Shown here: piece after piece, positions 1 to 15,528 of the stretch
How positions within the stretch are numbered: position 1 is the stretch's first letter
How the letters are laid out: each line of letters begins with the position of its first letter
Source: an uncultured Candidatus Saccharibacteria bacterium
GTDB taxonomy: Bacteria; Patescibacteriota; Saccharimonadia; CAILAD01; BJGX01
NCBI GenBank assembly: GCA_964610335.1
Contig: CAZSVP010000003.1
Location: 141,531 to 205,530 of the forward strand
Direction of reading: 5' to 3'
DNA: 64,000 bases
Translations under genes and position numbers: made by a program
Notes under the pieces: model-generated
Told to the model about the DNA's origin: nothing
What the model saw: the letters and a program-made list of their open reading frames with translations, nothing else
Databases searched by the model: none

Positions 1-258
1 AACCTTAAGTCTGGCGAAGGTAACCAAAGTATAGCCATTACGCAAGCGCGATCTGATTGGGATAGTCAGGCTTTGGCTGAGAATTACTTGGGCAAGAAGA
101 CTCAGCAGTACTTAGCTCTCCAAGCACAGGGGCTTACCATTTACGTCTATGGTGGTAACTCTGCTACTTGGGTGAACCATGGTAGTTGGTACAAGCTCGA
201 GGGTAAAGGTCCAGACATCAACCAAGATCAAATTATCAAGATAGCGACTAGTCTATGA
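1..258 (+). CDS. hypothetical protein, 5'-truncated at window edge
   Basis: Reading frame open from position 1 to TGA at 256-258; no recognisable motif. Confidence 0.3.
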   Translation, partial: NLKSGEGNQSIAITQARSDWDSQALAENYLGKKTQQYLALQAQGLTIYVYGGNSATWVNHGSWYKLEGKGPDINQDQIIKIATSL

Positions 259-596
259 ACGATGATCGATGGGGGGATCTAGTTGAGCTAATTGATGAGA
301 AATATACAGTTGATCACTTTGATCGAAGAGTGGAGAAGCTTGAGAACAACCCAGAGCTGACACAAACCATCGAGTCAATCGAGTTTGAGCGTGACAATGT
401 TAAATACAAGATAGAGCGGATCACTAGTCCGCGCATTGTAGACAAAAAAACGCACTTTCATCAGCGTGGAGTGGCGGCACGGGTTGAATACGTTTATGAC
501 CCAGAAGAGACTCAAACCAAGGTGATGTTCTTCAAGCAGATGACCGATGGTTACTGGAATGAGATCAGCCCCGAAGACCTGATGGCTGGCGCCTGA
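255..596 (+). CDS. hypothetical protein
   Basis: 113-aa ORF, ATGA overlap with upstream ORF (translational coupling); no recognisable motif. Confidence 0.4.
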   Translation: MNDDRWGDLVELIDEKYTVDHFDRRVEKLENNPELTQTIESIEFERDNVKYKIERITSPRIVDKKTHFHQRGVAARVEYVYDPEETQTKVMFFKQMTDGYWNEISPEDLMAGA

Positions 597-614
597 TCTG
601 ATATAATAAAGTAC

Positions 615-2036
615 ATGGCTAAACCAGTTCGAGTGAGATTTGCACCCAGCCCCACAGGGTTCCTGCATATTGGTGGTGTTCGCACCGCTTTATTCAATTA
701 TCTATTTGCCAAGGCCAATGACGGCAAATTCATATTGCGTCTGGAAGATACAGATCGTGAAAGGTTTGTTGAAGGCGGAGTAGAACAAATCGTCAAAAGC
801 CTAGACTGGGTGGGCTTGCACCCAGACGAAGGTGTTTGGTATGAGGAGAAACCAGGTAAGCATGGGCCATATATTCAGTCTAAGCGGATAAACCACTACG
901 ATGAGTATGCCAAGAAACTGGTTGACCAGGGCTTAGCCTACTACTCAGCTATTACGCCTGAAGCATTTACGGCTTTGCGCGAAGAAGCGATTGTACAGAA
1001 GCGACCATTTGTATACAAACAATCGATGGAGCCAAAAGCCAAACCCGCCACTACCGAGGGACTGCCAATTCGCTTGAAGGTAGCGGCCGGCGTTACCAAG
1101 TGGCACGATGAAGTGCGAGGTGAGTTTGAGACCAATCATGAACTTATCGACGACTTCATACTTGTCAAAGCCGACGGGTTCCCAACCTACAACTTTGCCA
1201 ACGTGGTTGACGATCACTTGATGCAGATAAGCCATGTGATCCGTGGCGATGAGTTCATTTCTACCACCGCTAAGCATGCTTTACTATACGATTTGCTTGG
1301 GTTTGACCGTCCTGCTTGGGTTCACTTGCCACCAATTCTTGGGCCCGATGGTAAGAAGAAGCTTAGTAAACGCGATGGAGACGTGGAAGTTCTCAATTAT
1401 CAAGAAAATGGCTATCTTTCGGCAGCACTCATCAACTTCTTAGCTTTGCTGGGCTGGAATGATGGAACCGAACAGGAGATTTTTAGTACAGAAGAGCTAA
1501 TCACTAAGTTTAGCCTGGATCGCATACAGAAGAGCCCAGCAGTATTTGATATTACTCGCCTTGATTGGATGAACGGTGAGTATATCCGCAACAAACTCAG
1601 TGAAGACGAGTTGACTGAAAAACTCAAGCCGTTTGTACCCAAAGAGTGGATGGATGATCTTGAGTACTTCAAGCGAGTGTTACAACTCGATGTAGAGCGC
1701 ATGAAGCGGCTCGATGAAGCTCAGTATCTTATGGAGATATTTTTTGTAACACCACAGGTAGATAAAACATTGCTTTGCAAGAAGGACAAAGAGAGTGATA
1801 TCAAGGATTGGCTAATAGCAGCTGCTGACGAGCTCAACCAGCTCGAAGAGTTTGGTCATGATGACATAGAAAGAGTGCTGCGGGCGCTGACCGAAACTCT
1901 AGAGATTAAGACCGGCAACTTGTTTTACGCATTGCGAGTAGCGCTAACTGGCCGTACCGAAGCTCCGGGGCTTTTTGATATAGTTGCCACACTCGGGCGT
2001 GATGAAGCTATTAAGCGCCTCCAAAATGCTCTATGA
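615..2036 (+). CDS. gltX: glutamyl-tRNA synthetase
   Basis: Class I aaRS motifs: PSPTGFLHIGG (HIGH) and KLSKR (KMSKS); length 473 aa typical of GluRS. Confidence 0.9.
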   Translation: MAKPVRVRFAPSPTGFLHIGGVRTALFNYLFAKANDGKFILRLEDTDRERFVEGGVEQIVKSLDWVGLHPDEGVWYEEKPGKHGPYIQSKRINHYDEYAKKLVDQGLAYYSAITPEAFTALREEAIVQKRPFVYKQSMEPKAKPATTEGLPIRLKVAAGVTKWHDEVRGEFETNHELIDDFILVKADGFPTYNFANVVDDHLMQISHVIRGDEFISTTAKHALLYDLLGFDRPAWVHLPPILGPDGKKKLSKRDGDVEVLNYQENGYLSAALINFLALLGWNDGTEQEIFSTEELITKFSLDRIQKSPAVFDITRLDWMNGEYIRNKLSEDELTEKLKPFVPKEWMDDLEYFKRVLQLDVERMKRLDEAQYLMEIFFVTPQVDKTLLCKKDKESDIKDWLIAAADELNQLEEFGHDDIERVLRALTETLEIKTGNLFYALRVALTGRTEAPGLFDIVATLGRDEAIKRLQNAL

Positions 2037-2692
2037 GCAAGTATTTGGTATTCTCGCATGGCTTTGGTGTGAAGAAAGACGATCGGGGCCTACTCACCGA
2101 CATTGCCGAAAACTCCCCAAAATACGAATCAGTACTTTTTGACTACAATGATGTCGATGAGGAGCACAATGTATTGACTGTAGCACCTTTACGGCGCCAA
2201 GCTGATATGTTACTAGATGAGATAGATATAGTCAGACAATCCGACCCAGATGCTGAAATTAGTTTGGTATGCCATTCGCAGGGTTGTGTAGTAGCAAGTA
2301 TTGCCAACCCATCAGATATCAAGCAAGCAATCTTTTTGGCTCCACCTGGCAATGTTAGTGCCGAGAGTATCCAGGAATTCTTTGGCAAACGACCAGGCAC
2401 AGTGGTAGAAGACGATGGAACTATGCGAGTACCGCGCGCTGATGGTAGCACTACCCGCATACCACAACAGTTCATAGATGATATTAAATCCGTAGATGTA
2501 GCCGAGCTTTATCCGAGCTTTGCGCGCCAAACCAAGCTTACTATTGTTGTGGCCAATCAAGACGAAGTACTTAAGCCTGTTGATTTTAGCTATCTAGCAG
2601 AAGATGTAAGATTGCTATATATAGACGGTGATCATAATTTCACAGGAGATGATAGAATAGGTTTGATAAATCAACTAGAGGAACTGCTATGA
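2033..2692 (+). CDS. alpha/beta-fold hydrolase (esterase-like)
   Basis: GXSXG nucleophile elbow (CHSQGC), later Asp/His candidates; overlaps gltX stop. Confidence 0.5.
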   Translation: MSKYLVFSHGFGVKKDDRGLLTDIAENSPKYESVLFDYNDVDEEHNVLTVAPLRRQADMLLDEIDIVRQSDPDAEISLVCHSQGCVVASIANPSDIKQAIFLAPPGNVSAESIQEFFGKRPGTVVEDDGTMRVPRADGSTTRIPQQFIDDIKSVDVAELYPSFARQTKLTIVVANQDEVLKPVDFSYLAEDVRLLYIDGDHNFTGDDRIGLINQLEELL

Positions 2693-4059
2693 AGATTACT
2701 TCGACAAATCCGTCTCGTAATTATGAAGAAATTGGAAGCGTTGAGCCCTCAACTGCCGAAGATGTTCAAGCCAAGATCACACAAGCTCATAAAGCGAAAT
2801 CTAGTTGGCGCGAACTTGGTATTCATGCTAGAACAAAGTTATTACAAAAGGTTGCTTCCGAAATTGAGCAATCAAAAGAACTTCTAGCTAAACTTATCGC
2901 CCAAGAAATGGGTATGCCAATAACTAGTGCACTATCTGAAGTCGACGATGCTTTGTACTATTGGCATTCTTATCTAAAAACTGCTGAAGGATTCTTAACA
3001 CCAGAGGTTACCCTCGAAACAGAGACTGAGCTTCATCAAGTCGTTCGAGAGCCGTACGGAGTGGTTGCTGCTATTGCTCCATGGAATTTCCCTATATCAA
3101 ATTTCGTATGGACTTGTGGTCAGAATTTAGCTGCCGGCAACGTGGTTGTGTTCAAACACTCAGAAGAAACACCGCTATGCGGCAAACTTATCGAAAAGAT
3201 TGTAAATAAAGTGCTTCCGGAGGGAGTATTCTCTGAATTATATGGCGATGGCACGGTTGGTAAAATGCTAGTTGAACAAGATATTAATTTTATCTGTTTC
3301 ACTGGTAGTACTGCCACCGGAATTAAGATCAATGAATCAGCAGCGCGACGGTTTATACCAACTTCGATGGAACTCGGTGGCTCAGCACCAGGAATAGTAT
3401 TGGAAGACTGTAATGTAACTGGTATTGCTGAAACCATATATTCGAACCGCTTTTCAAACTGTGGCCAAATGTGTGATGCTCTTAAACGGCTAATTGTTCA
3501 CGAATCAAAACTTGAACAAGTCAAAAATGAATTACTCAAGATTTTGGCTACCAAGAAAGTTGGCGATGCCCAAGATCCAAAAACTGATATCGGACCACTG
3601 GTAGCAAAACGCCAGCTTGAACTATTAGAGGAACAGGTAGCAGATGCTGTTACCAAGGGTGCCAACATACTTACTGGCGGTAATAGATTGGAAAAACTTT
3701 TGGGTGCTTATTATGAACCAACCTTGATAGAAAATGTAACTCCGGACATGAGGATTTGGCAGGAAGAAGTTTTTGGCCCAGTACTACCAATTGTAACTTT
3801 TAAGGCCGTAGATGAAGCTATTGACCTGGCAAATAACACCACTTATGGACTGGGTGCATATGTGTTTACTCAAGACAAGCAAAAATTTATGGATGTTGCT
3901 AATCAGCTAGAGTCGGGTATGGTTAGCCAAAACAATCTTAGCTACGTGAATTCGTGCAATTTCTTTGGCGGTTATAAGATGTCGGGGGGCGGACGTGAAC
4001 ACGCCAAGTTTGGTTTTGAAGAAGTTACTCAAACTAAAGTTATTGTTTCAGAAAAATAA
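2689..4059 (+). CDS. NAD(P)-dependent aldehyde dehydrogenase family protein
   Basis: ALDH Glu active-site motif ELGGSAP and Cys motif FSNCGQMC; ~456 aa. Confidence 0.85.
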   Translation: MKITSTNPSRNYEEIGSVEPSTAEDVQAKITQAHKAKSSWRELGIHARTKLLQKVASEIEQSKELLAKLIAQEMGMPITSALSEVDDALYYWHSYLKTAEGFLTPEVTLETETELHQVVREPYGVVAAIAPWNFPISNFVWTCGQNLAAGNVVVFKHSEETPLCGKLIEKIVNKVLPEGVFSELYGDGTVGKMLVEQDINFICFTGSTATGIKINESAARRFIPTSMELGGSAPGIVLEDCNVTGIAETIYSNRFSNCGQMCDALKRLIVHESKLEQVKNELLKILATKKVGDAQDPKTDIGPLVAKRQLELLEEQVADAVTKGANILTGGNRLEKLLGAYYEPTLIENVTPDMRIWQEEVFGPVLPIVTFKAVDEAIDLANNTTYGLGAYVFTQDKQKFMDVANQLESGMVSQNNLSYVNSCNFFGGYKMSGGGREHAKFGFEEVTQTKVIVSEK

Positions 4060-4076
4060 ACTTTGGCTTGGTAAGT

Positions 4077-5111
4077 CTAATTCCAGTCGAGTGTGCCGCC
4101 AGTTTGGTACTCGGTGACGCGAGTTTCGAAGAAGTTCTTTTCTTTGGTGAGATCAGCAGCTTCGCTCATCCATGGGAACGGGTTGGTTACATTGAACTGA
4201 GTCGGTAGGTCTACCATGGCAAGGCGACGATCGGCAATGTGCTCGATGTATTGTTTGAACCCATCGGCGTTCATACCAAATATCCCTTTGGGAAATACTT
4301 CTTGAGCGTAGGTATACTCAAGTTTGGCAGCTTCCTTGATAAGATCTACCATGTGTTGTTGAAACTCCTTGGTCCACAGCTCTGGCTGCTCCTCGCGAAT
4401 GGCGTTGATCATATTGATGCCGAAGTTGAGGTGCTGCGACTCGTCGCGCATGATGTATTGGATCTGCTCAGCGCTACCCGTAAGCTTGTTTTGGCGCTGA
4501 AACCCGAAGATCACAGCAAAGCTACTGTAGAAGAATATACCCTCTAGTATGAGCGAGAACACACAGAGGTTTTCCAAAAATTTCTGATCAGCCTCAAACG
4601 TACCAGTCTTGAAGCTGTCGTCAAATATTCCTTCGTTGAAGGTCAGGATGAACTTGGCCTTGGAAAAATGTGCAGCATTCTCGCGGTACATATTGAATAT
4701 CTTGCCGCCATCGAGGCCAAGACTTTCTACAATATACTGGTAGGCATGCGTATGGATGGCTTCTTCGTAACTTTGGCGCAATAGGTACATCCGACACTCT
4801 GGACTAGAGATGTGCTTGTACAGGGCCAGCACGATGTTGTTAGCGGCAATGGAATCGGCAGTAGTGAAGAACCCGAGTGCGGTTTCGAAGGCATGGCGCT
4901 CTTCTTCGGTCAGCTTGTTGCTTTTCCAGAGCTCAATGTCGTCTTGCATAGCTATCTCGGTAGGTAACCAATGGTTGGCATTGCCGGCATTGTAGGCGTC
5001 CCAGGCAAATGTGTGCTTCATGGGGTGCAGCTGGACTACATCGGCATCTTCACCATTGATTACTCGGCGTTTGTTGATGTCGACTCGTTTTTTGGTCATG
5101 CTTAGTGACAT
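4077..5111 (-). CDS. nrdB: ribonucleotide reductase class I small subunit (R2)
   Basis: Di-iron ligand motifs EEAIHTHAY and RDESQHLNFG; immediately downstream of nrdA. Confidence 0.9.
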   Translation of the reverse strand: MSLSMTKKRVDINKRRVINGEDADVVQLHPMKHTFAWDAYNAGNANHWLPTEIAMQDDIELWKSNKLTEEERHAFETALGFFTTADSIAANNIVLALYKHISSPECRMYLLRQSYEEAIHTHAYQYIVESLGLDGGKIFNMYRENAAHFSKAKFILTFNEGIFDDSFKTGTFEADQKFLENLCVFSLILEGIFFYSSFAVIFGFQRQNKLTGSAEQIQYIMRDESQHLNFGINMINAIREEQPELWTKEFQQHMVDLIKEAAKLEYTYAQEVFPKGIFGMNADGFKQYIEHIADRRLAMVDLPTQFNVTNPFPWMSEAADLTKEKNFFETRVTEYQTGGTLDWN

Positions 5112-5132
5112 GGGGTATCCTCCAGAAGGTGA

Positions 5133-7874
5133 TTAGATTAACTTAGTTTGCTGATCAGATTCTGGCTTGGGAGCATTATCGGCAATGGCACCAGCAAATT
5201 CTCGCTTGTGTGTAGCACCCATCTCAGCGGCGTTGACGGTAGATTTCTCAACTTGGGAGATTGCCAGACTACGCAGGTAGTAAGTAGTCTTGAGCCCCAT
5301 GCGCCAGGCATAGATATATAGATCGCTCAATTGTTTACCAGACACACCACTAACAAACACATTGAAGCTCTGGCTCTGATCTAGCCATTTGCCGCGATAG
5401 GCAGTGACGCGGATAAGGGCCATCGGGTCGATCTCAAACACTTCCTTGTACTTACGGCGCACATCTTCTGGTATCTCAGTAATCTTTTGGACTGAGCCGT
5501 CATGGAACTTCAACTTCTGCACCATCTCTGGACCCCACAGATTGAGTTTCTTAAGGTCAGTAACTAGGTAGGGGTTGATCACAGTAAATTCACCATTCAT
5601 GTTGGATTTCACATATAAGTTTTTGTAAATAGGCTCAATACATGGGTAACAGCCATTGATGTTGGAGATAGAGGCAGTTGGAGCTATCGCCATGGTGTTG
5701 CTATTGCGCATACCATATTTTTTCACTAGCGCACGAACAGGTTTCCAATCTAGCTTGCTAGTGCGCTTCACATCGATCTTCTCGCCGCGTTCTTTTTCAA
5801 GCATATCTAATGTATCGATGGGGAAGATGCCGCGATCCCACTTGGAGCCTTTGTAACTACTATAGGTACCTTTTTCGCGGGCAAGCTCAGCACTACCCAT
5901 GATGGCGTGGTAGCTGACAAATTCCATCGACTCGTCGGCAAAGGCTATTGCCTTGTCGCTCTCAAACTCCATGTCGAGCATATATAGAGCGTCTTGAAAG
6001 CCCATAATACCAATACCCACTGGGCGATGGCGCTGATTGGCAGTCTCATTCTCTTTGGTTGGGTAGAAGGTAATATCGATCACATTATCAAGCATGCGGA
6101 TGGCAGTCTTGACGGTATCGGCCAGTAGCTCACGATCGAGCTTGCCGCCTTTGATGTGAGTGGCAAGATTGACTGAGCCAATGTTGCAGACCGCTGTTTC
6201 CTCACGCGAGTTGTTGAGTGTGATCTCGGTACAAAGATTGGAATTGTGTACTACGCCGACATGGTCTTGCGGGCTGCGAACATTGCAAGCATCCTTAAAT
6301 GTAATCCATGGGTGGCCAGTCTCAAATAGCATGGTTAGCATCTTGCGCCACAACTGCAGCGCACTTACGCGGCGGAACTGACGAATCTTACCAGCATCGG
6401 CTAGTTTTTCGTACTCTTCATACTTTTGCTCAAACTCTTTGCCATATATATGATGAAGCTTTGGGACTTCCTCGGGGCTAAATAGTGTCCACTGCGCATT
6501 GGCCTCAACGCGTTTAATAAACAAATCTGGTACCCAGCTGGCTGTGTTCATGTCGTGAGTACGACGACGCTCGTCGCCAGTGTTTTTGCGTAGTTCTAAG
6601 AAATCTTCGAAGTCCAGATGCCAGTTTTCGAGATATACACAGGTAGCACCTATACGACGACCACTGCGGGCGATAGCTACGGTTACGTCATTGGCAATTT
6701 TGAGAAACGGCACTACACCCTGAGAAGGTATATTGATAGTCTTAATAAGCGAGCCAGTCGAGCGAATGTTGCTCCAGTCAGTACCAATGCCACCAGAGAA
6801 TTTACTCATTAGCGCATTGTCGCGATACACCTTGAAGATATGATCGAGATCGTCTTCGACAGTATTGAGATAGCACGAGCTCATCTGTGGCCATGATGTG
6901 CCGGAATTGAACAGAGTAGGTGAGCTAGGAGTATAGCGTTTGGTAGACAGGATATTGTAAAACTCTATCGCTACTGCAGTACGTTTCTTCTTGTCCTCGT
7001 TTAGCGCCATACCCATACTGACACGCATCCAAAATATCTGCGGCACTTCAAGTACTACCTTGCTCTCACGCTCAGGGCGCAGGAAGTAGTTGCTATATAG
7101 AGTTTGGAGTCCCATGTAGTCGATCATCTTGTCGCGGTCTGGCTTGATAGCATCGGCCAGCTTATCGAGCTCAAACTCAGCCATTTGCTTATGAAGCAGT
7201 TTGTTCTTGATACCGCTTTCTATGAAGTTCTTGAAGATTGTTTTGTAGGCTGTAGCGACTTCAGTAGTTTCACTGGCACCCAACACTTCCTTGTACATCT
7301 TCTTTTGCAATAGTCTTGCAGCCAAGCTATCGTAGGCCGGATCTTTTTCGATACTGCTTTTGGCAGCCAGTATCAGAGCATCGTCGAACTCATCTTCACT
7401 CATGCCATCGTAGACATTGGCCTTGGCGTATTCGGCCAGCTCTTCGATGTCGACGCCTTCTATACCATGGGCGGCCTCAACAAACGTTTTGATAATGGTA
7501 GGGTAGCCGTATTGAGCCGAGCTACCGTCGGCCATGGTTACAGATATGCCAGCATGCTCGAGCTTCTCAGCCTGGGCAGCCTCACGCATCATCTTGTGGG
7601 TGTCACGATAGATAATAAAGCTACGGGCAGTCTTGAAATAGCCACCGCGCATAAGTGCTTGTTCTACAAGGTCTTGGGTAGATTCTACGTCTGGCACATC
7701 GCCCGCAAATAAATCCTCCAGACCAGCCACCACGCCATCTACCAAGCTATCAATCTCATCGGCAGGAATCTCAGTCTCAGCCGATGCGCTAGCCTTTACT
7801 ATTGCTTGATATATACGCATGCGATCAAAGATTGCGATCTGGCCATTGCGCTTTTTTATTTGTGTAAAACTCAT
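5133..7874 (-). CDS. nrdA: ribonucleotide reductase class I large subunit with N-terminal ATP-cone
   Basis: ATP-cone (KRNGQIAIFDRMRIYQAIVKA), catalytic-site region NLCTEITL, 913 aa. Confidence 0.9.
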   Translation of the reverse strand: MSFTQIKKRNGQIAIFDRMRIYQAIVKASASAETEIPADEIDSLVDGVVAGLEDLFAGDVPDVESTQDLVEQALMRGGYFKTARSFIIYRDTHKMMREAAQAEKLEHAGISVTMADGSSAQYGYPTIIKTFVEAAHGIEGVDIEELAEYAKANVYDGMSEDEFDDALILAAKSSIEKDPAYDSLAARLLQKKMYKEVLGASETTEVATAYKTIFKNFIESGIKNKLLHKQMAEFELDKLADAIKPDRDKMIDYMGLQTLYSNYFLRPERESKVVLEVPQIFWMRVSMGMALNEDKKKRTAVAIEFYNILSTKRYTPSSPTLFNSGTSWPQMSSCYLNTVEDDLDHIFKVYRDNALMSKFSGGIGTDWSNIRSTGSLIKTINIPSQGVVPFLKIANDVTVAIARSGRRIGATCVYLENWHLDFEDFLELRKNTGDERRRTHDMNTASWVPDLFIKRVEANAQWTLFSPEEVPKLHHIYGKEFEQKYEEYEKLADAGKIRQFRRVSALQLWRKMLTMLFETGHPWITFKDACNVRSPQDHVGVVHNSNLCTEITLNNSREETAVCNIGSVNLATHIKGGKLDRELLADTVKTAIRMLDNVIDITFYPTKENETANQRHRPVGIGIMGFQDALYMLDMEFESDKAIAFADESMEFVSYHAIMGSAELAREKGTYSSYKGSKWDRGIFPIDTLDMLEKERGEKIDVKRTSKLDWKPVRALVKKYGMRNSNTMAIAPTASISNINGCYPCIEPIYKNLYVKSNMNGEFTVINPYLVTDLKKLNLWGPEMVQKLKFHDGSVQKITEIPEDVRRKYKEVFEIDPMALIRVTAYRGKWLDQSQSFNVFVSGVSGKQLSDLYIYAWRMGLKTTYYLRSLAISQVEKSTVNAAEMGATHKREFAGAIADNAPKPESDQQTKLI

Positions 7875-7913
7875 GTATCACCCTCCACCTTTAGTTTTTC
7901 GAGATCAAACAAA

Positions 7914-7929
7914 ACACTATATATAGTGC
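7914..7929 (-). promoter_or_regulatory. NrdR box 1 (perfect palindrome ACACTATATATAGTGC-like) upstream of nrdAB
   Basis: CACTATATATAGTG is a perfect inverted repeat; matches NrdR-box consensus acaCwAtATaTwGtgt. Confidence 0.7.
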
Positions 7930-7946
7930 TTTGTAGTTATACTACC

Positions 7947-7962
7947 ACCACATATAGTGCTT
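7947..7962 (-). promoter_or_regulatory. NrdR box 2 (ACACATATAGTGCT-like), about 33 bp from box 1
   Basis: Second imperfect palindrome with same core; tandem spacing of about 3 helical turns typical for NrdR operators. Confidence 0.6.
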
Positions 7963-8093
7963 GTGGTAGTACTTTGTCGTACATTCGTTTGATAATTGCT
8001 CTCACACAACTACTTACGAACATAATACGAATCTAGCCCCCTTGTTGTCAACTCTTTTACTCTCTCACGAAACAAAACTTAGTAGCATCATAG

Positions 8094-8120
8094 CCCGGCT
8101 GGGCAATAGCTACAATATGG
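8094..8120 (+). repeat. partial copy of CCCGG..GCAATAG.TAC repeat (see copies at 8334, 9176, 9434)
   Basis: CCCGGCTGGGCAATAGCTACAATATGG shares CCCGG-GCAATAG-TAC core with downstream copies. Confidence 0.4.
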
Positions 8121-8216
8121 TTTGTAAAAAATACAATGAAAAATCTGAGTTTGAAGTGATTTGTGCTACTGGTCAAAATATACGAAATATGTTAAAGTAG
8201 GCTGGCATTTTTTAGT

Positions 8217-8291
8217 GGTCCCATCGTCTAACGGTTAGGACACCAGATTCTCAATCTGGCAATCGGAGTTCGATTCTCCGTGGGATCACCA
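8217..8291 (+). tRNA. tRNA-Glu (anticodon CUC), CCA encoded
   Basis: Manual cloverleaf: acceptor GGTCCCA/TGGGATC, D-arm GTCT/GGAC, anticodon stem CCAGA/TCTGG with loop TTCTCAA (anticodon CTC), T-arm CGGAG-TTCGATT-CTCCG, discriminator A + CCA. Confidence 0.85.
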
Positions 8292-8333
8292 TGTCTTTAT
8301 ACAGAATTCTAGTCAACTTCAATAAGCTGCTGA

Positions 8334-8379
8334 GTTGGTTCGAATCCAGCCCCCGGAGCAATAGTACTTATGCTTAAAG
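8334..8379 (+). repeat. tRNA 3'-end-like fragment (T-arm GTTGG-TTCGAAT-CCAGC + acceptor-like tail) fused to repeat CCCGGAGCAATAGTACTTATGCTTAAAG; att-like copy a
   Basis: Canonical T-loop GGTTCGAATCC with pairing stem but no matching 5' acceptor/D/anticodon arms upstream; sequence repeated imperfectly at 9176 and 9434. Confidence 0.55.
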
Positions 8380-8400
8380 ACCTGAAAAGGTCCTTTTGAT

Positions 8401-9177
8401 ATGATAGTTATTATGAAGATTTTGTCACCAACTCTAAATTTTAATTCGCAGTCTGCAATAGATGAATTTAAGAAAGTTATTGGCGGGCTACCTAGTGATG
8501 TTGATGATTACATTGTTGGTGGTTCTGTTAGAAACGCTATTTTTAGAAAAATATTTGGTGAAGTACTTACTCAACGAGATTACGACCAAGTTGTTACAAA
8601 AAATTCAGATAAATATTTAGAGTATCTTAAATCTCTAGGGTTTTATCTCGGTAAACTAGACCGCCCTACTCAAAAGGTATATGCATACGACCTAATACCA
8701 AATCCACCTGCTGATAGTTATGTAGATTCATTGGTTTATGATATTCATACAATGGACAATACAACCATTGAAGAAAACCTAAGAACTAGTAGTGGTTTTA
8801 CAATCAACGGCTTTGCATTACCTATAAGAAAATTATTTGACGAAAACTGGTTTGACGAAATCATACAACTGCCAGGTGCACTAGATGATATGAAGAAAAA
8901 ACAGCTTAGGGTAAATAAAGATGGTTACAAAGAACAACCAGCGAATCTTTTTGCTGGAATTAGGTTTATGTCTAAAGGATTTTTACCACCTAGCAAAGAA
9001 GATGTTGAGTTATTACTAAACGAAATGCCAAACATCACTCCAGAAAGATTTGAAAAGGGCGTGAAGAAAGTCTGGGATTATGTTGGTGGCGAGCAAAAAG
9101 CTCGAGAGTATGTAAAACAGTTGAACATTGATATTGATATTTTTAATCGTGAAGAAATTCTGAGCAAACTAGGCTAG
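8401..9177 (+). CDS. truncated tRNA-nucleotidyltransferase/poly(A)-polymerase-family nucleotidyltransferase (head+neck domains only, 258 aa)
   Basis: YIVGGSVRN..DYD (Pol-beta NTase GG.VRD..D.D motif of CCA enzymes), FTINGFA (cf. RRDFTMNAIA), AGIRFMSKGF (cf. RAVRFVSELGF); ORF is ~35% GC versus ~47% flanks. Confidence 0.65.
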   Translation: MIVIMKILSPTLNFNSQSAIDEFKKVIGGLPSDVDDYIVGGSVRNAIFRKIFGEVLTQRDYDQVVTKNSDKYLEYLKSLGFYLGKLDRPTQKVYAYDLIPNPPADSYVDSLVYDIHTMDNTTIEENLRTSSGFTINGFALPIRKLFDENWFDEIIQLPGALDDMKKKQLRVNKDGYKEQPANLFAGIRFMSKGFLPPSKEDVELLLNEMPNITPERFEKGVKKVWDYVGGEQKAREYVKQLNIDIDIFNREEILSKLG

Positions 9178-9224
9178 TTCTAACTTCAGTTACTACCCGG
9201 AGCCATAGTACTTATGCTTAAAAG
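9176..9224 (+). repeat. att-like repeat copy b (degenerate T-arm-like AGTTCTAACTTCAG + CCCGGAGCCATAGTACTTATGCTTAAAAG)
   Basis: 29-nt near-identity to copy a (27/29), preceded by degenerated T-loop-like segment. Confidence 0.55.
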
Positions 9225-9230
9225 GCCCAC

Positions 9231-9434
9231 GTGTTTCATTTTGTTATAATAACGAATATGAAAACAATACGATATATTGCTGTTGTTTGTAATGCTATTT
9301 TTGTAGCTTGGCTATTATTTAATGCAATTGATGAGGGTTTTCGTGCAGTAAATCGTGTAGAACTAGTCTCGATGATTAGTCTAATAGCGCTACTGTTGCT
9401 CAACATTATTCTTCTACTACATCGGCGTGCCTAA
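9231..9434 (+). CDS. small hydrophobic protein (2 predicted TM helices), AT-rich
   Basis: 67-aa ORF, ~33% GC, two hydrophobic stretches; lies inside the repeat-bounded islet. Confidence 0.35.
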   Translation: MFHFVIITNMKTIRYIAVVCNAIFVAWLLFNAIDEGFRAVNRVELVSMISLIALLLLNIILLLHRRA

Positions 9435-9481
9435 GTTCAAATCTCCATTACAACCCGAAGCCAAAGTGCTAGTATCAAAAG
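9434..9481 (+). repeat. att-like repeat copy c (AGTTCAAATCTCC...CCCGAAGCCAAAGTGCTAGTATCAAAAG), most degenerate
   Basis: Aligns with copy b over about 45 nt with about 70% identity including T-loop-like AGTTCAAATC and CCCG.AGCCA.AGT.CT core. Confidence 0.45.
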
Positions 9482-9539
9482 AAGCCGTCGGAGCTCCTTT
9501 TTGATATACTTTAGTTAACAAATTAAACAAGGAGTAATT

Positions 9540-9830
9540 ATGCCCAAATCAAAATCTAACCCGGATATAGAAATCAACGCCAAAGTAAACAGTACCGAAT
9601 GGAAAGAGTGGGCAAAACAATGCAGCCAGGACAAAGCCAACAAATCGTCACATAGTGCAGCTGGTGCTTCTGGAGGATTATACTTTCTAGGATTTGTGGG
9701 GTCGCTGATTTACTGGATGCAAGCTGCAGGTAACTTTGGGGCTGTCATAACCGGAATACTTAAATCACTAGTGTGGCCCACCTATATAGTTTATAAGTTG
9801 CTCGAAGGTTTTTACGGCGTTGTAAGGTAG
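9540..9830 (+). CDS. small membrane protein, hypothetical
   Basis: Strong RBS AAGGAG 6 nt upstream of ATG; C-terminal hydrophobic segments; near-native GC. Confidence 0.5.
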   Translation: MPKSKSNPDIEINAKVNSTEWKEWAKQCSQDKANKSSHSAAGASGGLYFLGFVGSLIYWMQAAGNFGAVITGILKSLVWPTYIVYKLLEGFYGVVR

Positions 9831-9851
9831 TAGCACAAGAACAATCTACCT

Positions 9852-10712
9852 GTGAAACTTCCAACAAATAGCCATAGTTCAGACCATCCTCAAACCAACC
9901 GCACTTCGCACACCCAGCTACCCGCTGGCGATGAGATAATGCATATCTCCAATGCCGAAGAAAAGCGCGAACTGTTAGCAGAACGACAAAATGTGCATTT
10001 TGTAGACTTCAGTTCTATCAAGGTCATGTATGAAAAGTTTGGTATGGATACCGCAATATTTGATACGCCAGATCTTACGCCTCAATTTATCTTGGATACC
10101 GGCAACAGTCTAACCAATCAGCTAGTAACTACCTTGCTTCAAAAAAAGCTATCAGAGCAAGAAGTACAACTGTTGAAGGATTGCTACAGCTATTTGTCAG
10201 AGCAAGATGAGCCCCAAGCATCAGACTACATCTATGTATTTGGTGCCAAAACACCACTGCGGATTGAAAAAGCCATAGAGCTATACCAGCAAGGTCTAGC
10301 TCCGAAAATAATTGTAAGTGGCCGCGGACCATTCTATGGCACCGAACAAACTACCACTGAAGCTGGCATTTACTCGGCGATTGCTCAAGCTGCAGGTGTG
10401 CCACGGAGCGCCATAATAGTGGAAGATGCGTCGATTACTATACCCGACAATGTGCGTCGAACGCTAAATATGATGGATGCTAACAGTATGCCTTATAGCT
10501 CATTTATACTCGTTAACTCACCATATACTCAGCGACGCGGCTGGTGTGTGTGGAAGAAGCATACGCCTGAAGCAGTCAAACTATATCGCGCTAACTGTGC
10601 AGCTGGAGTTAAGTTTGATAGTGATAACTGGTATCAAAACGAAGATGGATTGAAAGTGGTGCTTGGCGAGTTTGTAAAATTGCGCAATACTATAGCGTTC
10701 AACGATGCTTAA
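9852..10712 (+). CDS. DUF218/YdcF-like (SanA/ElyC family) protein
   Basis: YIYVFGAKTPLRIEKAIELYQQGLAPKIIVSGRG and ...IIVEDASITIPDN match the DUF218 G-x-R-x-A...SGG...E..S.nT pattern; true start may be the internal Met (MHISNAEE). Confidence 0.55.
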   Translation: MKLPTNSHSSDHPQTNRTSHTQLPAGDEIMHISNAEEKRELLAERQNVHFVDFSSIKVMYEKFGMDTAIFDTPDLTPQFILDTGNSLTNQLVTTLLQKKLSEQEVQLLKDCYSYLSEQDEPQASDYIYVFGAKTPLRIEKAIELYQQGLAPKIIVSGRGPFYGTEQTTTEAGIYSAIAQAAGVPRSAIIVEDASITIPDNVRRTLNMMDANSMPYSSFILVNSPYTQRRGWCVWKKHTPEAVKLYRANCAAGVKFDSDNWYQNEDGLKVVLGEFVKLRNTIAFNDA

Positions 10713-11773
10713 AGATTGCCTTTGAAGAATTCAACAATGTGGCTCACTACTACAACTTGATTCTGTGCAAACAAATGATCATTACCTGGAGTAGTAAAGA
10801 AGTCTACTGGTTTGCTAGCTTGACGCAAGGCATCGGTGAGCCGTTGCGAGAAGTTTGGTGGTACCACTCCGTCGTTGGTACTGGTATATACCAGTGATAC
10901 CCCTGTAATGTACTTAACATAATTAATAGCCGATGCACTATCCCAGAAATTTGGGTTTGATTTAGGGTCGCCATACTTGTTGAGTAATTCTTCGCGCTTA
11001 GATTGTACTAGCGAGGGTAAGTCAGACGGTATTGGGCTATTGGGCCAATTGTATAGAATGTCTGAAATCGAACCTACCACACCCGATAGGTAAGCCGTCG
11101 CCTTAATGGCAGGCGAGCTTACTGCAGCTCGCAAACTTACATGTCCACCTAGGCTATGACCAATCATGCCAATACGATTTGGGTTGACCAAGCTGTACTG
11201 TTGCAAACTAGCGACTAGGTTGAGAACATCATAGGCATAGACCGGCGAAAAATGACCACCCTCTGGTGTGCCTTGGCTACTAGCATGACCTCGATAGTCA
11301 GGCTTTATTACCACAAAACCAGCTCGCGCCAACTGCGCCATCAGATTTTGGTAGGTAGGGGAATTGGTTGTTTGATACTCGCTGGGGTTGACGTAGCCAT
11401 GATTGAGTACGATAACTGGCCAACCGCCTATCGGTGCGTTACCGGGCGGCGTGAACATCTGAGCATATTGTTTGAGACCATCAGACGTGTAGGATACTAC
11501 TTGGTTATTATATCCTTCGCTACTACCTAGATTTTGCTCCACCAGGATTTGGCTTGCTTGATAACCACGCGATCTGATAGCTTCAATCTGTATAGGGTCG
11601 AGTTCGGCTTGAACGGGGACAGCTATTTGGGTAGTGGGTAACTCTATAGCTGGTCGACGCGCTGATCTACTAGAGACGAAATACAGTATCAAGCCTGCCA
11701 ACAACACAAAACTCACACTTATCCCTACTAACAATGCAACCTGCCTACTATTGTGCGTTTCTGACATATACAT
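10709..11773 (-). CDS. membrane-anchored alpha/beta hydrolase (S9/dienelactone-hydrolase-like)
   Basis: N-terminal TM helix, GXSXG motif GHSLGG, C-terminal Asp/His candidates. Confidence 0.6.
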   Translation of the reverse strand: MYMSETHNSRQVALLVGISVSFVLLAGLILYFVSSRSARRPAIELPTTQIAVPVQAELDPIQIEAIRSRGYQASQILVEQNLGSSEGYNNQVVSYTSDGLKQYAQMFTPPGNAPIGGWPVIVLNHGYVNPSEYQTTNSPTYQNLMAQLARAGFVVIKPDYRGHASSQGTPEGGHFSPVYAYDVLNLVASLQQYSLVNPNRIGMIGHSLGGHVSLRAAVSSPAIKATAYLSGVVGSISDILYNWPNSPIPSDLPSLVQSKREELLNKYGDPKSNPNFWDSASAINYVKYITGVSLVYTSTNDGVVPPNFSQRLTDALRQASKPVDFFTTPGNDHLFAQNQVVVVSHIVEFFKGNL

Positions 11774-12341: not shown

Positions 12342-13124
12342 GTGAGGTATAATGTAGTTATGAAATCTATTTGGGATGGTTCGATCAATTTTGGGCTCGT
12401 AAACATACCTGTTCGTATGTACAGTGGCAGCACCAAACACGAGGGCATTGACCTTGCGATGTTACGCCGCTCAGACAAGTCACCAATACGCTATGAGCGA
12501 GTGGCCGAAGCAGATGGTAAGGAAGTAGCATTTGAGGATATTGCCAAAGGCTATGAATACGAAAAAGGCCAGTTTGTTTTGTTGAGTGACGAAGATTTTG
12601 AAAACGCCAACCAGCACAAGGCTCGCAACATCACTATCAAACAGTTTGTTAGCGAGGACGAGATAGACAGTCGCTACTACGACAAACCATACTACCTTGA
12701 GCCTGATGAGCACGCAGCCGATACTTACGCGCTGTTGCGCGATGCACTAGCACAAACCGACAAGATTGCTTTGGCACGCTATGTGTTACACGGTCATGAG
12801 AATATTGCCGCCATTAAACCAGTAGGTAAGCTACTGGTACTAAATCAAATGCGGTTTCCTGCTGATTTGCGTGAACCTAGCGAGCTTGATATACCAAATA
12901 CCAAAGCCGACAAGCCCGAGCTTGCGATGGCTGTGAAACTAATCAATCAGCTAACCAAGCCGTTCATCGCCGAGGATTGGCACGATACCTACACTGAGGA
13001 ATTGCGAGAAACAATTGATCGCAAGGTAAAGAATAAGCCCTCCAAAGCCAAAGGCAAACCACACAGCAAGCCGACTAGTGTCAAGGATTTAGCCCAAGCC
13101 CTAAAACAAAGCTTAAATAAGTAG
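12342..13124 (+). CDS. ku: Ku DNA end-binding protein (NHEJ)
   Basis: N-terminal MKSIWDGSINFGLVNIPVRMYSGS Ku signature; Lys-rich C-terminal tail; alternative start ATG at 12360. Confidence 0.9.
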   Translation: MRYNVVMKSIWDGSINFGLVNIPVRMYSGSTKHEGIDLAMLRRSDKSPIRYERVAEADGKEVAFEDIAKGYEYEKGQFVLLSDEDFENANQHKARNITIKQFVSEDEIDSRYYDKPYYLEPDEHAADTYALLRDALAQTDKIALARYVLHGHENIAAIKPVGKLLVLNQMRFPADLREPSELDIPNTKADKPELAMAVKLINQLTKPFIAEDWHDTYTEELRETIDRKVKNKPSKAKGKPHSKPTSVKDLAQALKQSLNK

Positions 13125-13131
13125 GTAGTAA

Positions 13132-15528
13132 GTGGGACTACGCGACTACTTACGCAAACGAGTATTTAGCAAAACCCCTGAGCCTCGCGGTAAGCACAAC
13201 AGGGGCAATAGCTCAGAGCTGCGGTTTGTTGTACAAAAGCATGCTGCTAGCCACTTACATTATGACTTTCGGCTGGAGCTCGATGGTGTACTTAAAAGCT
13301 GGGCCGTGCCCAAAGGAATTAGTCTCAATCCAAGCGAACACCACCTAGCGATTCAAACCGAAGATCACCCATTAGAGTACATCTCTTTTAAGGGCAAAAT
13401 ACCGGAAGGTAACTATGGTGCCGGTAAAGTAGAGATATACGATCATGGTACATATGAACCTCGCGCCTCGGTAGATGATAATGCCAAGGAAATCCGATCT
13501 GCCCTGCACAATGGTCACCTGACATTTATCCTTCATGGCGATAAGCTGAAGGGTGAGTTTGCACTTATTCGCAATGAACACTTTGCAAAGAATGGTTGGC
13601 TACTGATAAAGAAAGGTGATCAGTATGCCAAGCCACCAGGACCATACTACCTGCCCGACAAAGCCGATATGGATCCCGAAAAAGCCCTTTCGTCCTCGCC
13701 ACGGGTCAAGATGCCATCGCATATCAAACCAATGCTTGCAACACTGGTAGACAAGCCATTTGACGATGCTGGCTGGCTATACGAAGTCAAATGGGATGGC
13801 TATCGTGCACTCGCTTACAAACACAGCGGTAAGGTATCGCTTGAGTCACGCAACCAAAACGACTTTACTAGTTCATATCAAGAGATTACCGCAGCTGTTG
13901 CTAAGCTTAGACATGATGTCGTCTTGGATGGTGAAATGGTTGCAGTTGACAGCAATGGCCACCCGCATTTTGAATGGTTACAGAACTGGCGCACAGCACC
14001 GCAAGGCAAGTTGGTTTATTACGTGTTTGACTTACTATGGTGTGATGGCAAAGATTTACGCAAGCTGCCACTTAGAACTCGCCGATCAATATTGAGTAAC
14101 ATAATCCCCAAGGATTCTATTATCCGGCTTAGTGATGGGGTAGAGAACAAAGGCCTCAAATACTTCGAGCGAGCGGCCAAACTTGGCTTGGAGGGTATAG
14201 TTGCTAAAAGGTTAGATAGCACCTACCAAGAGAACGTTCGTGGTAAAAATTGGTTGAAGATCAAAACCCATATGCGACAAGAAGTTGTGATAGGTGGCTA
14301 CACAGAGCCACGCGGCAGTCGCTCTAGCCTTGGTTCATTATTGGTAGGCGTATATGTAGACAGTAAGTTTGTGTACTGTGGCCATGTCGGAACAGGTATG
14401 GACGAGTCAACACTCCAAGAATTGTATGCCAAATTGAGTAAGATTGAATCAAAATCCATGCCTTTTGATAATGAGCCAAAGTCAAACGAGACAGTACACT
14501 ATATCAAGCCAAAATACGTTTGCGAAGTAAAATTTGCCGAGTGGACTAGCAATGGTACTATGCGCCAGCCAGTTTACTTGGGTCTTAGACCCGACAAGAA
14601 GCCTCAACAAGTAGTTCGCGAGATTCCTACCAAAGCCAAGCAAGAATTTGAGCTTACACACCTCGATAAGGTGTTTTGGCCAGAGGGTAAGTTTACAAAA
14701 GGCGACCTACTAAAATACTACGAAAGTATTGCTGAGACACTGCTACCGTATCTAAACAACCGACCCCAGTCACTTCTGCGTCAACCAGATGGGTACAGAG
14801 GCCAAGCATTTTTCCAAAAAGATATATCGAAATTCGCGCCAGACTGGGCCAAAACTATATCTATTCATTCAGACTCATCAAACAAGGAGGTGGAGTATTT
14901 GATATGCAATGACCTGAAAACTTTGCAGTATATGGTACAGCTAGGCTGTATTGAGATCAATCCGTGGAACTCGCGCACCAAGCACTTGACCAAACCAGAC
15001 TGGGCAGTAGTGGATCTTGATCCTGAAGACATCAGTTTTGAAAAAGTCATTGAAGTCGCCAAGGTCGTACACAAGGTTTGTGAGGAGCTAAAAATTCCAT
15101 GCTACCCAAAAACTTCCGGCAAGACAGGTATCCACATATTTATTCCATTAGACGCAAAGTATAGTTACGATCAAGCCCGCCAGTTTGTTCAACTACTAGT
15201 AACAATTATTCACGAACGCACAAGCAAGATTACCAGTCTAGAGCGTAGTCCAGCGAAGCGCAAACACAAGATATACCTCGACTATTTGCAAAACAGCGAA
15301 GGCCAAACCCTTGCGTCCGCCTACTGTGTACGTCCAACTAAAGCCGCGAGTGTTTCAACACCACTACACTGGGATGAAGTGAGAGTTGGTCTTGACCCCA
15401 CAAAGTTTACTATCAAAACTACAGCAGCTCGTGTTAAGCGTGTAGGTGATCTCTGGAAACCTGTTCTGGGTGATGGAGTTGATTTAAAACAAGTATTGAG
15501 TAATCTAACAGGCATAACCAAGAAGTGA
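13132..15528 (+). CDS. ligD: ATP-dependent DNA ligase LigD (phosphoesterase-ligase-polymerase domains)
   Basis: PE domain (RFVVQKHAASHLHYDFRLE), ligase motif I EVKWDGYRA, C-terminal primase-polymerase domain (KTSGKTGIHIFIPL). Confidence 0.9.
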   Translation: MGLRDYLRKRVFSKTPEPRGKHNRGNSSELRFVVQKHAASHLHYDFRLELDGVLKSWAVPKGISLNPSEHHLAIQTEDHPLEYISFKGKIPEGNYGAGKVEIYDHGTYEPRASVDDNAKEIRSALHNGHLTFILHGDKLKGEFALIRNEHFAKNGWLLIKKGDQYAKPPGPYYLPDKADMDPEKALSSSPRVKMPSHIKPMLATLVDKPFDDAGWLYEVKWDGYRALAYKHSGKVSLESRNQNDFTSSYQEITAAVAKLRHDVVLDGEMVAVDSNGHPHFEWLQNWRTAPQGKLVYYVFDLLWCDGKDLRKLPLRTRRSILSNIIPKDSIIRLSDGVENKGLKYFERAAKLGLEGIVAKRLDSTYQENVRGKNWLKIKTHMRQEVVIGGYTEPRGSRSSLGSLLVGVYVDSKFVYCGHVGTGMDESTLQELYAKLSKIESKSMPFDNEPKSNETVHYIKPKYVCEVKFAEWTSNGTMRQPVYLGLRPDKKPQQVVREIPTKAKQEFELTHLDKVFWPEGKFTKGDLLKYYESIAETLLPYLNNRPQSLLRQPDGYRGQAFFQKDISKFAPDWAKTISIHSDSSNKEVEYLICNDLKTLQYMVQLGCIEINPWNSRTKHLTKPDWAVVDLDPEDISFEKVIEVAKVVHKVCEELKIPCYPKTSGKTGIHIFIPLDAKYSYDQARQFVQLLVTIIHERTSKITSLERSPAKRKHKIYLDYLQNSEGQTLASAYCVRPTKAASVSTPLHWDEVRVGLDPTKFTIKTTAARVKRVGDLWKPVLGDGVDLKQVLSNLTGITKK

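Follow-up and report, generated by a model that had tools for sequence, protein, structure and literature searches.

A 64,000-nucleotide stretch of DNA from an uncultured Candidatus Saccharibacteria bacterium (contig CAZSVP010000003.1), which was analysed as a whole and is referred to here as the window, encodes at positions 8401-9177 of its forward strand a 258-aa protein that we call NTase (nucleotidyltransferase). Judged from its sequence and predicted structure, NTase is the head plus neck of the class II CCA/poly(A) nucleotidyltransferases and nothing more. The gene itself is accessory, horizontally exchanged cargo, a single-gene cassette of foreign composition, because genes of this family are markedly richer in AT than their flanks in 6 of 8 loci and because a near-identical strain carries a different sequence at the same position. 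We hold the classification and the cassette statements, taken together, with high confidence. As the best explanation of all observations, for which we see about an even chance, we propose that NTase is an intact and selected head-neck offshoot of the class II Pol-beta enzymes, predicted to be an RNA 3'-end nucleotidyltransferase and carried as accessory cassette cargo.

The open reading frame (ORF), the head motif YIVGGSVRN...RDYD (residues 37-62) and the neck motifs SGFTINGFA (131-139) and FAGIRFMSKGF (184-194) are all present as a preliminary description of this DNA had given them. In family searches, PF01743 covers only residues 37-71 of the window NTase and stays below its gathering score (E 0.13; 13.1 bits against a cut-off of 23), and the PF01743 match that the preliminary description had offered as a check therefore formally fails for this protein. 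Among 36 family members, 14 reach PF01743 at E<=0.1, with a best E of 7e-6. The NCBIfam matches are all sub-threshold (E 7e-4 to 9e-3; CCA, PcnB and A-adding models, 1-3 members each), and TIGR01942 (pcnB) is touched by one member with E 0.0014. Searches of the PDB sequences with phmmer and with the family profile returned no CCA enzyme and only chance matches (E>0.5). Since sequence-only comparison was too weak, methods based on fold and on profile-profile comparison were needed.

The clearest match in a sequence library is phrog_2244, “tRNA nucleotidyltransferase”, which matches residues 120-225 of the window NTase with E 5e-9 and is also matched by 24 of the 36 members. Ten weaker matches of the family profile were checked, and it turned out that 7 are proteins of 329-502 aa which pass PF01743, 4 of them passing PF12627 as well. 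When the NTase family was aligned by hhalign with 13 of the weaker matches, taken as canonical PF01743+PF12627 proteins, the probability was 99.5% (E 3e-23, 189 columns), and the alignment ran over 15-226 of the query and 1-210 of 425 template positions. A canonical class II profile scored 61.6 bits on the NTase ORF over positions 11-213 of 453, in line with the earlier remark that the protein stops before the body and tail domains.

The AlphaFold2 model computed from the family alignment has a mean predicted local distance difference test score (pLDDT) of 95.2 and a predicted TM-score (pTM) of 0.89. All 47 Foldseek matches in PDB at E<=0.001 are CC-, CCA- or A-adding enzymes, the E. coli poly(A) polymerase (PAP) or TENT5/FAM46 proteins. 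The best is the Aquifex CC-adding enzyme (E 9e-11), and the class II CCA/PAP-type matches, which range from 9e-11 to 2e-5, extend over 237-265 columns with query TM-scores (TMq) of 0.57-0.65; they include the Thermotoga, Geobacillus, Planococcus and human CCA-adding enzymes, the Aquifex A-adding enzyme and E. coli PAP. Among viral structures the model matches tRNA nucleotidyltransferases of phages and giant viruses, up to E 2e-8. The structure prediction that had been suggested as a check thus led to the class II CCA/PAP fold, and the placement of NTase in the CCA/PAP clade rather than in the MenT/AbiEii families was borne out by hhalign, Foldseek and phrog_2244 together, with no match to DUF1814.

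To locate the motifs, we used the hhalign register together with conservation in 52 family sequences, in which R44 and D62 are invariant and G41, N45, R59, D60, D114, N136, R188 and K223 are at least 90% conserved. Motif A is kept as G40-G41-x-x-R44, with N45 in place of the last aspartate of GGxVRD in at least 90% of members. The D60-x-D62 pair and D114 are kept and aligned with the three catalytic carboxylates, which in the Aquifex A-adding enzyme are Asp31, Asp33 and Glu74 (PMC3925840). In motif B, F-T-I-N is kept (133-136) and RRD is lost, as RRDFTINA aligns with T-S-S-G-FTINGFA and the family shows no conservation at these three sites. The motif C aspartate is kept as D163 in the hinge. 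A remnant of motif D can be read as E178-Q-P-A-N182...R188 F189, with P180 and R188-F189 kept, while the template residues are lost: EDPLRxLRAxRF has become EQPANLFAGIRF, in which D is changed to a variable Q, R to N182 and the second R to A185. In motif E, the arginine and K223 of the next helix are kept. About 15-17 residues are deleted between the D114 strand and motif B, an hhalign gap which corresponds to the flexible-loop region, and a nearly invariant K223...Y227-V-G-G motif specific to the family stands at the C-terminal end of the neck.

These losses fall on well-described parts of the CCA-adding enzymes. An amino-acid template made up of two Arg/Asp couples stacks against CTP or ATP and base-pairs with it (PMC8563995), and it is the flexible loop that brings about the change from C to A (PMC8563995, PMC2910056). 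The Asp and Arg that read the base belong to the neck; the elbow of the tRNA and its acceptor/T helices are held by body and tail (PMC3925840). With RRD, the loop, EDxxR and the body and tail all gone, the family appears from its residue pattern to retain the chemistry and to have discarded every element that defines CCA specificity. The equivalences drawn earlier between FTINGFA and RRDFTMNA and between AGIRF and RAVRF are therefore sound as alignments, yet the adjoining residues critical for function are gone.

Against CCA-adding enzymes of class II from T. maritima (3H37/5HC9), G. stearothermophilus (1MIV) and Planococcus (6QY6), the head-neck fold can be aligned along all 258 aa (TMq 0.60-0.65). 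Both sides have GGxxR, DxD, the third carboxylate, FTIN, the motif C Asp, the R-F of motif D and the R/K of motif E. Unlike these enzymes, NTase has GGxVRN for GGxVRD, no RRD, a loop shorter by about 15-17 residues and E-Q-P-A-N-L-F-A for EDxxRxxR; it is about 255 aa long against 370-450 aa, lacks body and tail, and has the extra C-terminal K...YVGG. The best structural matches, the Aquifex aeolicus CC-adding (3WFO-3WFS) and A-adding (4WBY-4WC2) enzymes, do part of the CCA reaction and, unlike NTase, retain the Asp/Arg template and a body and tail that bind the top half of tRNA (PMC3925840). The phage tRNA nucleotidyltransferases behind PHROG 2244 (Aeromonas and Mycobacterium phage proteins in BFVD) differ as well, being proteins of 330-450 aa with C-terminal domains, and no member of the NTase family was found on IMG/VR viral contigs. 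By homology and fold, NTase is thus to be placed in the class II superfamily, and it should not be filed as a CCA-, CC- or A-adding enzyme or as a PAP, because four defining features fail (RRD, the flexible loop, EDxxR, and body/tail). On one source, an IMG-type annotation, the exact NTase protein is labelled “tRNA nucleotidyltransferase/poly(A) polymerase”, and most relatives are “hypothetical”.

The gene as it stands is intact and no truncation. Its true start is probably ATG 8413 (M5), since the homologues begin at that position. The frame is interrupted by a stop 15 nt upstream of the ATG, the stop-to-stop ORF starting at 8386, and the tRNA-Glu gene followed by a tRNA fragment just upstream (Table 1) leaves no room for an upstream extension. 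Among the forward-frame ORFs of at least 25 aa in 7875-10800, the canonical class II profile found no body or tail remnants. The possibility that we were looking at a fragment of a longer gene, raised in the preliminary description, is thereby answered in favour of a complete gene. Between NTase and the 91%-identical copy in locus L001, the ratio of nonsynonymous to synonymous substitution rates (dN/dS) is 0.039 with dS about 1.1, and the gene is therefore under strong purifying selection. The word “truncated” used before is right in that only head and neck are present and wrong as a statement about this gene; since every full-length relative has 235-270 aa, it fits only as an evolutionary description. 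The GC content of the gene is 34.2% (25% at third codon positions), compared with 45.5% for the window and 41-61% at third codon positions for the neighbouring genes, close to the 35% estimated before.

The family to which NTase belongs is real, uniform in length, very rare and patchy. Among 5.8 billion proteins we found 40 relatives with 37-91% identity, of which 39 have 241-270 aa and one is a 164-aa partial sequence. Among 1.84 billion cluster representatives, 119 matched the family profile with E<=0.001, 68 of them with E<=1e-10; those of full length have 235-261 aa, apart from one outlier of 338 aa. NrdA, which is encoded next door, has thousands of relatives, against about 70 clusters for the NTase family; the best named ones share 66-68% identity with NrdA and are all “Candidatus Saccharibacteria” or “Patescibacteria group”. 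The NTase family is distributed over Saccharibacteria, other Patescibacteria and apparently DPANN-like archaea. An alignment-based scan of the GTDB representative genomes gave a single match, a Saccharimonadales metagenome-assembled genome, which together with the NrdA relatives assigns the window to Saccharibacteria (TM7), and a scan of the genome collection with the NTase protein alone as query gave none.

Two subgroups can be told apart by charge. The Saccharibacteria-type subgroup is acidic, with isoelectric points (pI) of 4.9-6.8 for most members, and a second subgroup (P0027-P0039) is very basic, with pI about 10. One basic member lies at 5001-5732 of L012, a contig which carries genes for two archaeal markers as well, ribosomal protein S17e and Alba, and which presumably comes from a DPANN-type archaeon; the same subgroup occurs on an NCBI “Patescibacteria group bacterium” contig. 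Its presence on both contigs suggests that the family has passed between ultra-small bacteria and archaea. Besides, a protein of canonical length (P0113, 425 aa) shares the GGSIRN...KDYD signature and the insertion before DxD, retains RRD, EDPLR and the C-terminal half, and may stand for the full-length line that gave rise to the short family. Other short PF01743-like proteins occur in metagenomes, with RRD/EDxxR intact in some and not in others, so the head-neck architecture alone is not unprecedented. Literature searches found no characterised short PF01743-like protein, and we know of none so far.

The mobility of the gene is seen most directly by comparison with L029, a near-identical strain whose NrdA is about 100% identical at the protein level. 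The two align over window positions 1-8382 at 98.5% and over 9176-11666 at 96.2%, and in between about 8383-9175, which is essentially the NTase ORF, is replaced in L029 by 1,521 bp with an unrelated 396-aa ORF (4144-5334, opposite strand) that matches no Pfam family (best CarboxypepD_reg, E 0.095). The left breakpoint lies directly after the hairpin TTTTGAT: L029 diverges after TTTTTGAT, and the window and L001 run into the gene. The right breakpoint is the start of a tRNA-like fragment, with homology between the window and L029 resuming at 9176; homology between the window and L001 ends at 9206, the last base of the same fragment. In L001 the 91% homologue stands behind an intact tRNA-Asn(GTT), with an identical trailer and terminator-like hairpin up to the start codon. 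The AT-rich foreign islet recognised in the preliminary description is thus strengthened by a cassette replacement. A 395-aa gene beside tRNA-Asn in L001 was considered as the counterpart of the 396-aa gene of L029 and was rejected (BLASTP E 0.28).

The cassette boundaries are derived from the 3' end of tRNA-Asn, and their coordinates are collected in Table 1.

Table 1. Features of the NTase cassette and its surroundings in the window
Feature	Coordinates	Strand	Basis
tRNA-Glu (CTC), CCA genome-encoded	8217..8291	+	ARAGORN; Rfam tRNA, 62 bits
Decayed 3' part of tRNA-Asn, left att-like boundary	8320..8360	+	Alignment to intact tRNA-Asn(GTT) of L001
Direct repeat copy 1: last 9-10 nt of tRNA-Asn + 17-nt trailer (CCCGGAGCAATAGTACTTATGCTTAAA)	8352..8378	+	Repeat search
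Terminator-like hairpin GACCTGAAAAGGTC, then CTTTTGA, directly 5' of the start codon	8379..8399	+	Terminator scan
NTase, head-plus-neck class II-type, 258 aa	8401..9177	+	ORF list, family searches, model, profile comparison
tRNA 3'-end-like fragment, 30 nt, right att-like core	9177..9206	+	Alignments of window, L029 and L001
Direct repeat copy 2 (CCCGGAGCCATAGTACTTATGCTTAAA)	9196..9222	+	Repeat search
67-aa ORF, two hydrophobic segments, perhaps starting at M10 (9258)	9231..9434	+	ORF list, composition
Third tRNA-3'-end-like copy, degenerate, closing the 67-aa cassette	9435..9507	+	Alignment

The tRNA-Glu gene diverges from nrdA, and this pair marks the start of the variable region; it is kept in a distant Saccharibacteria contig (L026), where a different gene follows. 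On the left of NTase, the decayed tRNA-Asn holds an anticodon-arm-like stretch, the T arm GTTGG-TTCGAAT-CCAGC and the 3' strand of the acceptor, with CCA changed to CAA, and it is not called as a tRNA by ARAGORN or Rfam. Its 3' half is retained in both variants and has mutated further in L029 (minus strand, about 5525-5555), although an intact copy of the gene has to exist elsewhere in the genome. Apparently it survives for no other role than that of a boundary for recombination. On the right, the 30-nt fragment begins at the last base of the stop codon and consists of the T-arm-like GTTCTAACTTCAG..., an acceptor-like ACCCGGA, G and CCA, and it is followed by the 17-nt trailer just as on the left side.

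The att-like repeats reported before on both sides of NTase are therefore present and derived from tRNA-Asn. The sites read GGTTCGAATCC...CCGGAGCCA; the 27-nt direct repeat is 26/27 identical between its copies and occurs only twice in 64 kb, with 0 copies expected by chance, and this copy number led us to reject a common promoter or REP-like (repetitive extragenic palindromic) motif. The third copy consists of GTTCAAATCTCC...CCCGAAGCCA followed by the trailer, the hairpin and TTTTTGATAT, and its counterpart in L029 is nearer to the consensus (CCCGGAGCCATTGTACTAGTATCAAAAAG). Structured RNAs, such as a minihelix substrate or mimic, were considered for the tRNA-like flanks and rejected, the folding z-scores being +0.6 to +1.1 against shuffled sequences. 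Since the copies after NTase and after the 67-aa ORF fold no better than shuffles, they are relics of sequence and not structured RNAs; the Rfam scan found no second tRNA at the locus. NTase is the sole ORF between the repeats, which hold no integrase, and the remaining window was not scanned for recombinases.

Genomic islets at tRNA 3' ends offer the nearest comparison for this locus. The copies of the tRNA-Asn 3' end with trailer, the foreign composition and the strain-variable content are common to both. Unlike such islets, the locus is only about 0.8 kb long, contains a single ORF and lacks an integrase; its two tiny cassettes are bounded by three att-like copies, and in the window strain the left tRNA-Asn itself is a non-functional remnant.

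As an observation in its own right, NTase, the 67-aa cassette and the 396-aa ORF of L029, together with the three att-like copies, look like a small array of swappable single-gene cassettes with no local integrase. Three short-read contigs with the exact NTase protein (L023, L024, L025) end 139-182 nt upstream of the gene, and the contigs L030 and L031 end about 370 nt upstream of nrdA. Such recurrent breaks of independent assemblies between nrdA/tRNA-Glu and NTase would fit a junction that is either repeated elsewhere in the genome (the real tRNA-Asn) or polymorphic in the population.

For the activity of NTase, we propose that a nucleoside triphosphate (NTP) would bind between head and neck, and that a two-metal reaction would transfer the nucleoside monophosphate to a 3'-OH, most likely that of an accessible RNA 3' end. 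Neither a protein template for C and A nor measuring of tRNA would be needed, and the protein would act as a stand-alone tailing or 3'-end-modifying enzyme rather than as a builder of CCA. RNA 3' ends are the most likely acceptor because of the descent of the family and because all structural neighbours are RNA 3'-end nucleotidyltransferases. Judged from sequence and model, RNA 3'-end transfer may be the activity of NTase, with a likelihood that we place at or slightly short of even.

The closest functional analogy is PcnB (E. coli 3AQK-3AQM), which has the class II head-neck core and tails RNA 3' ends without measuring tRNA; unlike NTase, it keeps a body domain and a C-terminal RNA-binding region. 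PAP also keeps motifs B and D. TENT5/FAM46 proteins are compact RNA tailing enzymes with a nucleotidyltransferase and a helical domain (E 6e-6 to 1.5e-5; TMq 0.46-0.52), and they differ in being eukaryotic, in their crystallised constructs of about 330 aa, in an identity of 11-14% and in a fold match weaker than that of class II. The two examples mean that compact or tRNA-independent tailing enzymes do exist, and TENT5/FAM46 in particular that RNA can be tailed by a head with a helical domain that lacks anchoring domains of the tRNA type.

Several points weigh against this proposal. Loss of RRD and of the Arg/Asp of motif D could disturb NTP binding, and the acceptor or even the donor may differ from what is usual in class II. 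The window NTase is acidic (pI 5.2), unlike a non-specific RNA binder, and without body and tail it offers no obvious surface for holding RNA. The canonical set used in the hhalign comparison was picked from the family's own weak matches, which favours alignment. As for the exchange of the cassette, it is only the tRNA-derived boundaries, with no integrase in the islet, that suggest site-specific recombination.

A bolder form of the proposal seems rather improbable to us. It holds that the family would be a new class of RNA 3'-end nucleotidyltransferases derived from CCA enzymes in ultra-small symbionts (Saccharibacteria/Patescibacteria and DPANN-like archaea), with a rebuilt pocket (K223/Y227-VGG replacing RRD/EDxxR) and an altered nucleotide or acceptor specificity, which would tag or extend the 3' ends of tRNA or other RNAs, in symbiont-host-phage conflicts for example, and would spread as a single gene through tRNA-Asn-derived sites.

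A serious rival, though on balance an unlikely one, is that the head-neck cleft has been re-tooled for an acceptor other than RNA, such as a small molecule (an antibiotic or a metabolite, for instance), a nucleotide or a protein side chain. The domains that position RNA and the residues that template the base are gone, a new K223/Y227-V-G-G motif has appeared, and the subgroup of the window is acidic, all of which would fit this idea. So would the nucleotide-handling or house-cleaning genes found near family members in several loci (NUDIX, HD, CYTH, Ham1 and AAA_18/AAA_33 kinases, with the ribonucleotide reductase at the window), but they are not conserved between loci. Nucleotide-metabolism genes are common in such small genomes anyway. 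Against a non-RNA acceptor, the significant structural matches are RNA 3'-end nucleotidyltransferases without exception, and no antibiotic nucleotidyltransferase, cGAS/DncV-type enzyme or adenylyltransferase is among the 50 PDB matches listed.

The preliminary description had considered for the gene a toxin or defence effector of a mobile islet, which would add nucleotides to tRNA acceptor ends and block translation by a logic like that of MenT/AbiEii. We regard this as improbable. Such an effector would suit a cassette that varies between strains, is rich in AT, holds one gene and lies at att-like sites derived from tRNA. Near a distant homologue (locus L005) there are genes for an integrase, Fic and a caspase-helicase, and MenT is a precedent for small stand-alone nucleotidyltransferases that can poison tRNA 3' ends (PMC7450476). 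The MenT/AbiEii proteins (DUF1814) are small stand-alone enzymes with the Pol-beta fold, often on mobile DNA, that extend tRNA acceptor ends (PMC7450476). They are always paired with an antitoxin gene, whereas NTase does not match DUF1814 and has no conserved partner. Because the domain differs and an antitoxin is lacking, NTase does not appear, from its sequence, to be a toxin of the MenT/AbiEii type, and no MenT structure is among the PDB matches listed for the model.

The gene neighbourhoods speak against the toxin idea in the same way. We compared the flanking ORFs of 21 loci (about 10 of them independent) all against all, and found no gene conserved next to NTase across the independent loci. 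Just two neighbour families recur between independent loci: a NUDIX hydrolase, which occurs in two loci and in one of them lies 3 kb away, and a generic ABC-transporter ATPase. Most neighbourhoods consist of housekeeping genes. PADLOC gave only three single-member matches to unrelated models (E 0.003-0.008), the 36 members match neither DUF1814/AbiEii nor any other such Pfam family, and none of the family matches a viral contig of IMG/VR. With no conserved partner, no credible PADLOC match and no member on a viral contig, the toxin/defence reading finds no support.

The equally AT-rich 67-aa ORF behind NTase has the two hydrophobic stretches ascribed to it before and a GC content of 33.8%. It has only 3 near-identical homologues among the 5.8 billion proteins and is thus an orphan of close strains. 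Since it is present in L029, which lacks NTase, and absent from L001 beside the 91% homologue, it is not the partner of NTase. Its sequence weakly resembles the Mbov_0395 pilin-like conjugal transfer family of mycoplasma integrative and conjugative elements (E 0.005, below the cut-off).

Very unlikely, in our view, is a minimal housekeeping enzyme for the repair of tRNA 3' ends (CCA-, CC- or A-adding), which could be enough for a genome whose tRNA genes encode CCA, as do tRNA-Glu of the window and tRNA-Asn of L001. Descent from class II CCA-type enzymes, the position of NTase directly behind tRNA genes in the two closest loci and the IMG-type label quoted above agree with it. Besides, neither a canonical cca gene nor a paralogue of NTase was found in the 64-kb window and about 190 kb of related loci, a small part of any genome that gives no evidence of absence. 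Such a role is opposed by the loss of the Arg/Asp template, the flexible-loop segment, the body and the tail, by the rarity of the family (about 70 clusters among 1.84 billion representatives, against thousands for NrdA), by the absence of the gene from a near-identical strain and by its foreign codon composition. Moreover, canonical class II CCA enzymes have been reported from Patescibacteria (bioRxiv 10.64898/2026.05.29.728689). The minimal CC- or A-adding enzyme offered as an alternative in the preliminary description is hence improbable, with template side chains and loop lost, the family rare and the gene strain-variable.

A decaying fragment or catalytically dead pseudo-enzyme, which the score below the Pfam threshold, the loss of several canonical motifs and the adjoining decayed tRNA gene might suggest, is hardly credible in view of the uniform family length, the dN/dS of 0.039, the pLDDT of 95, the lack of downstream body or tail remnants and the three metal-binding carboxylates that are at least 90% conserved in 52 divergent members.

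Some further observations were made in passing. In L005, at 7405-7962, a stand-alone 185-aa HD-domain protein is encoded two genes downstream of the family member P0030, an arrangement observed in a single locus. Its sequence matches the HD section of a canonical CCA-enzyme profile (E 3.6e-5), and the protein could be the separated equivalent of the HD phosphohydrolase domain that bacterial CCA enzymes carry. In the window, two related A/T-rich palindromic boxes at 7909-7934 and 7946-7962 (ACAAAACACTATATATAGTGCTTTGT; CACCACATATAGTGCTT), 31 nt apart, sit a short way upstream of nrdA, whose start is 7874 on the minus strand, and are present in L022 too. In spacing and sequence they resemble the tandem NrdR boxes that regulate ribonucleotide reductase operons. 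In addition, Ku and, behind it, a multidomain LigD (ligase, primase-polymerase and LigD_N) are encoded at 12342-15528 and make up a complete two-gene module for non-homologous end joining in this small Saccharibacteria genome.

In conclusion, NTase and its cassette overturn no current understanding, and the function of the protein is one that we infer. Class II CCA enzymes are the textbook example of polymerases templated by protein side chains, and NTase would be a natural, conserved derivative which has kept the metal ligands and lost the template, the switch loop and the tRNA ruler, thereby showing what the bare head-neck core is capable of. It may also point to an unrecognised modification of RNA 3' ends in Patescibacteria and DPANN-like symbionts. 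At the locus, gene-sized cassettes are swapped between near-identical Saccharibacteria at sites like tRNA 3' ends with no local integrase, which bears on how tiny genomes acquire accessory genes.

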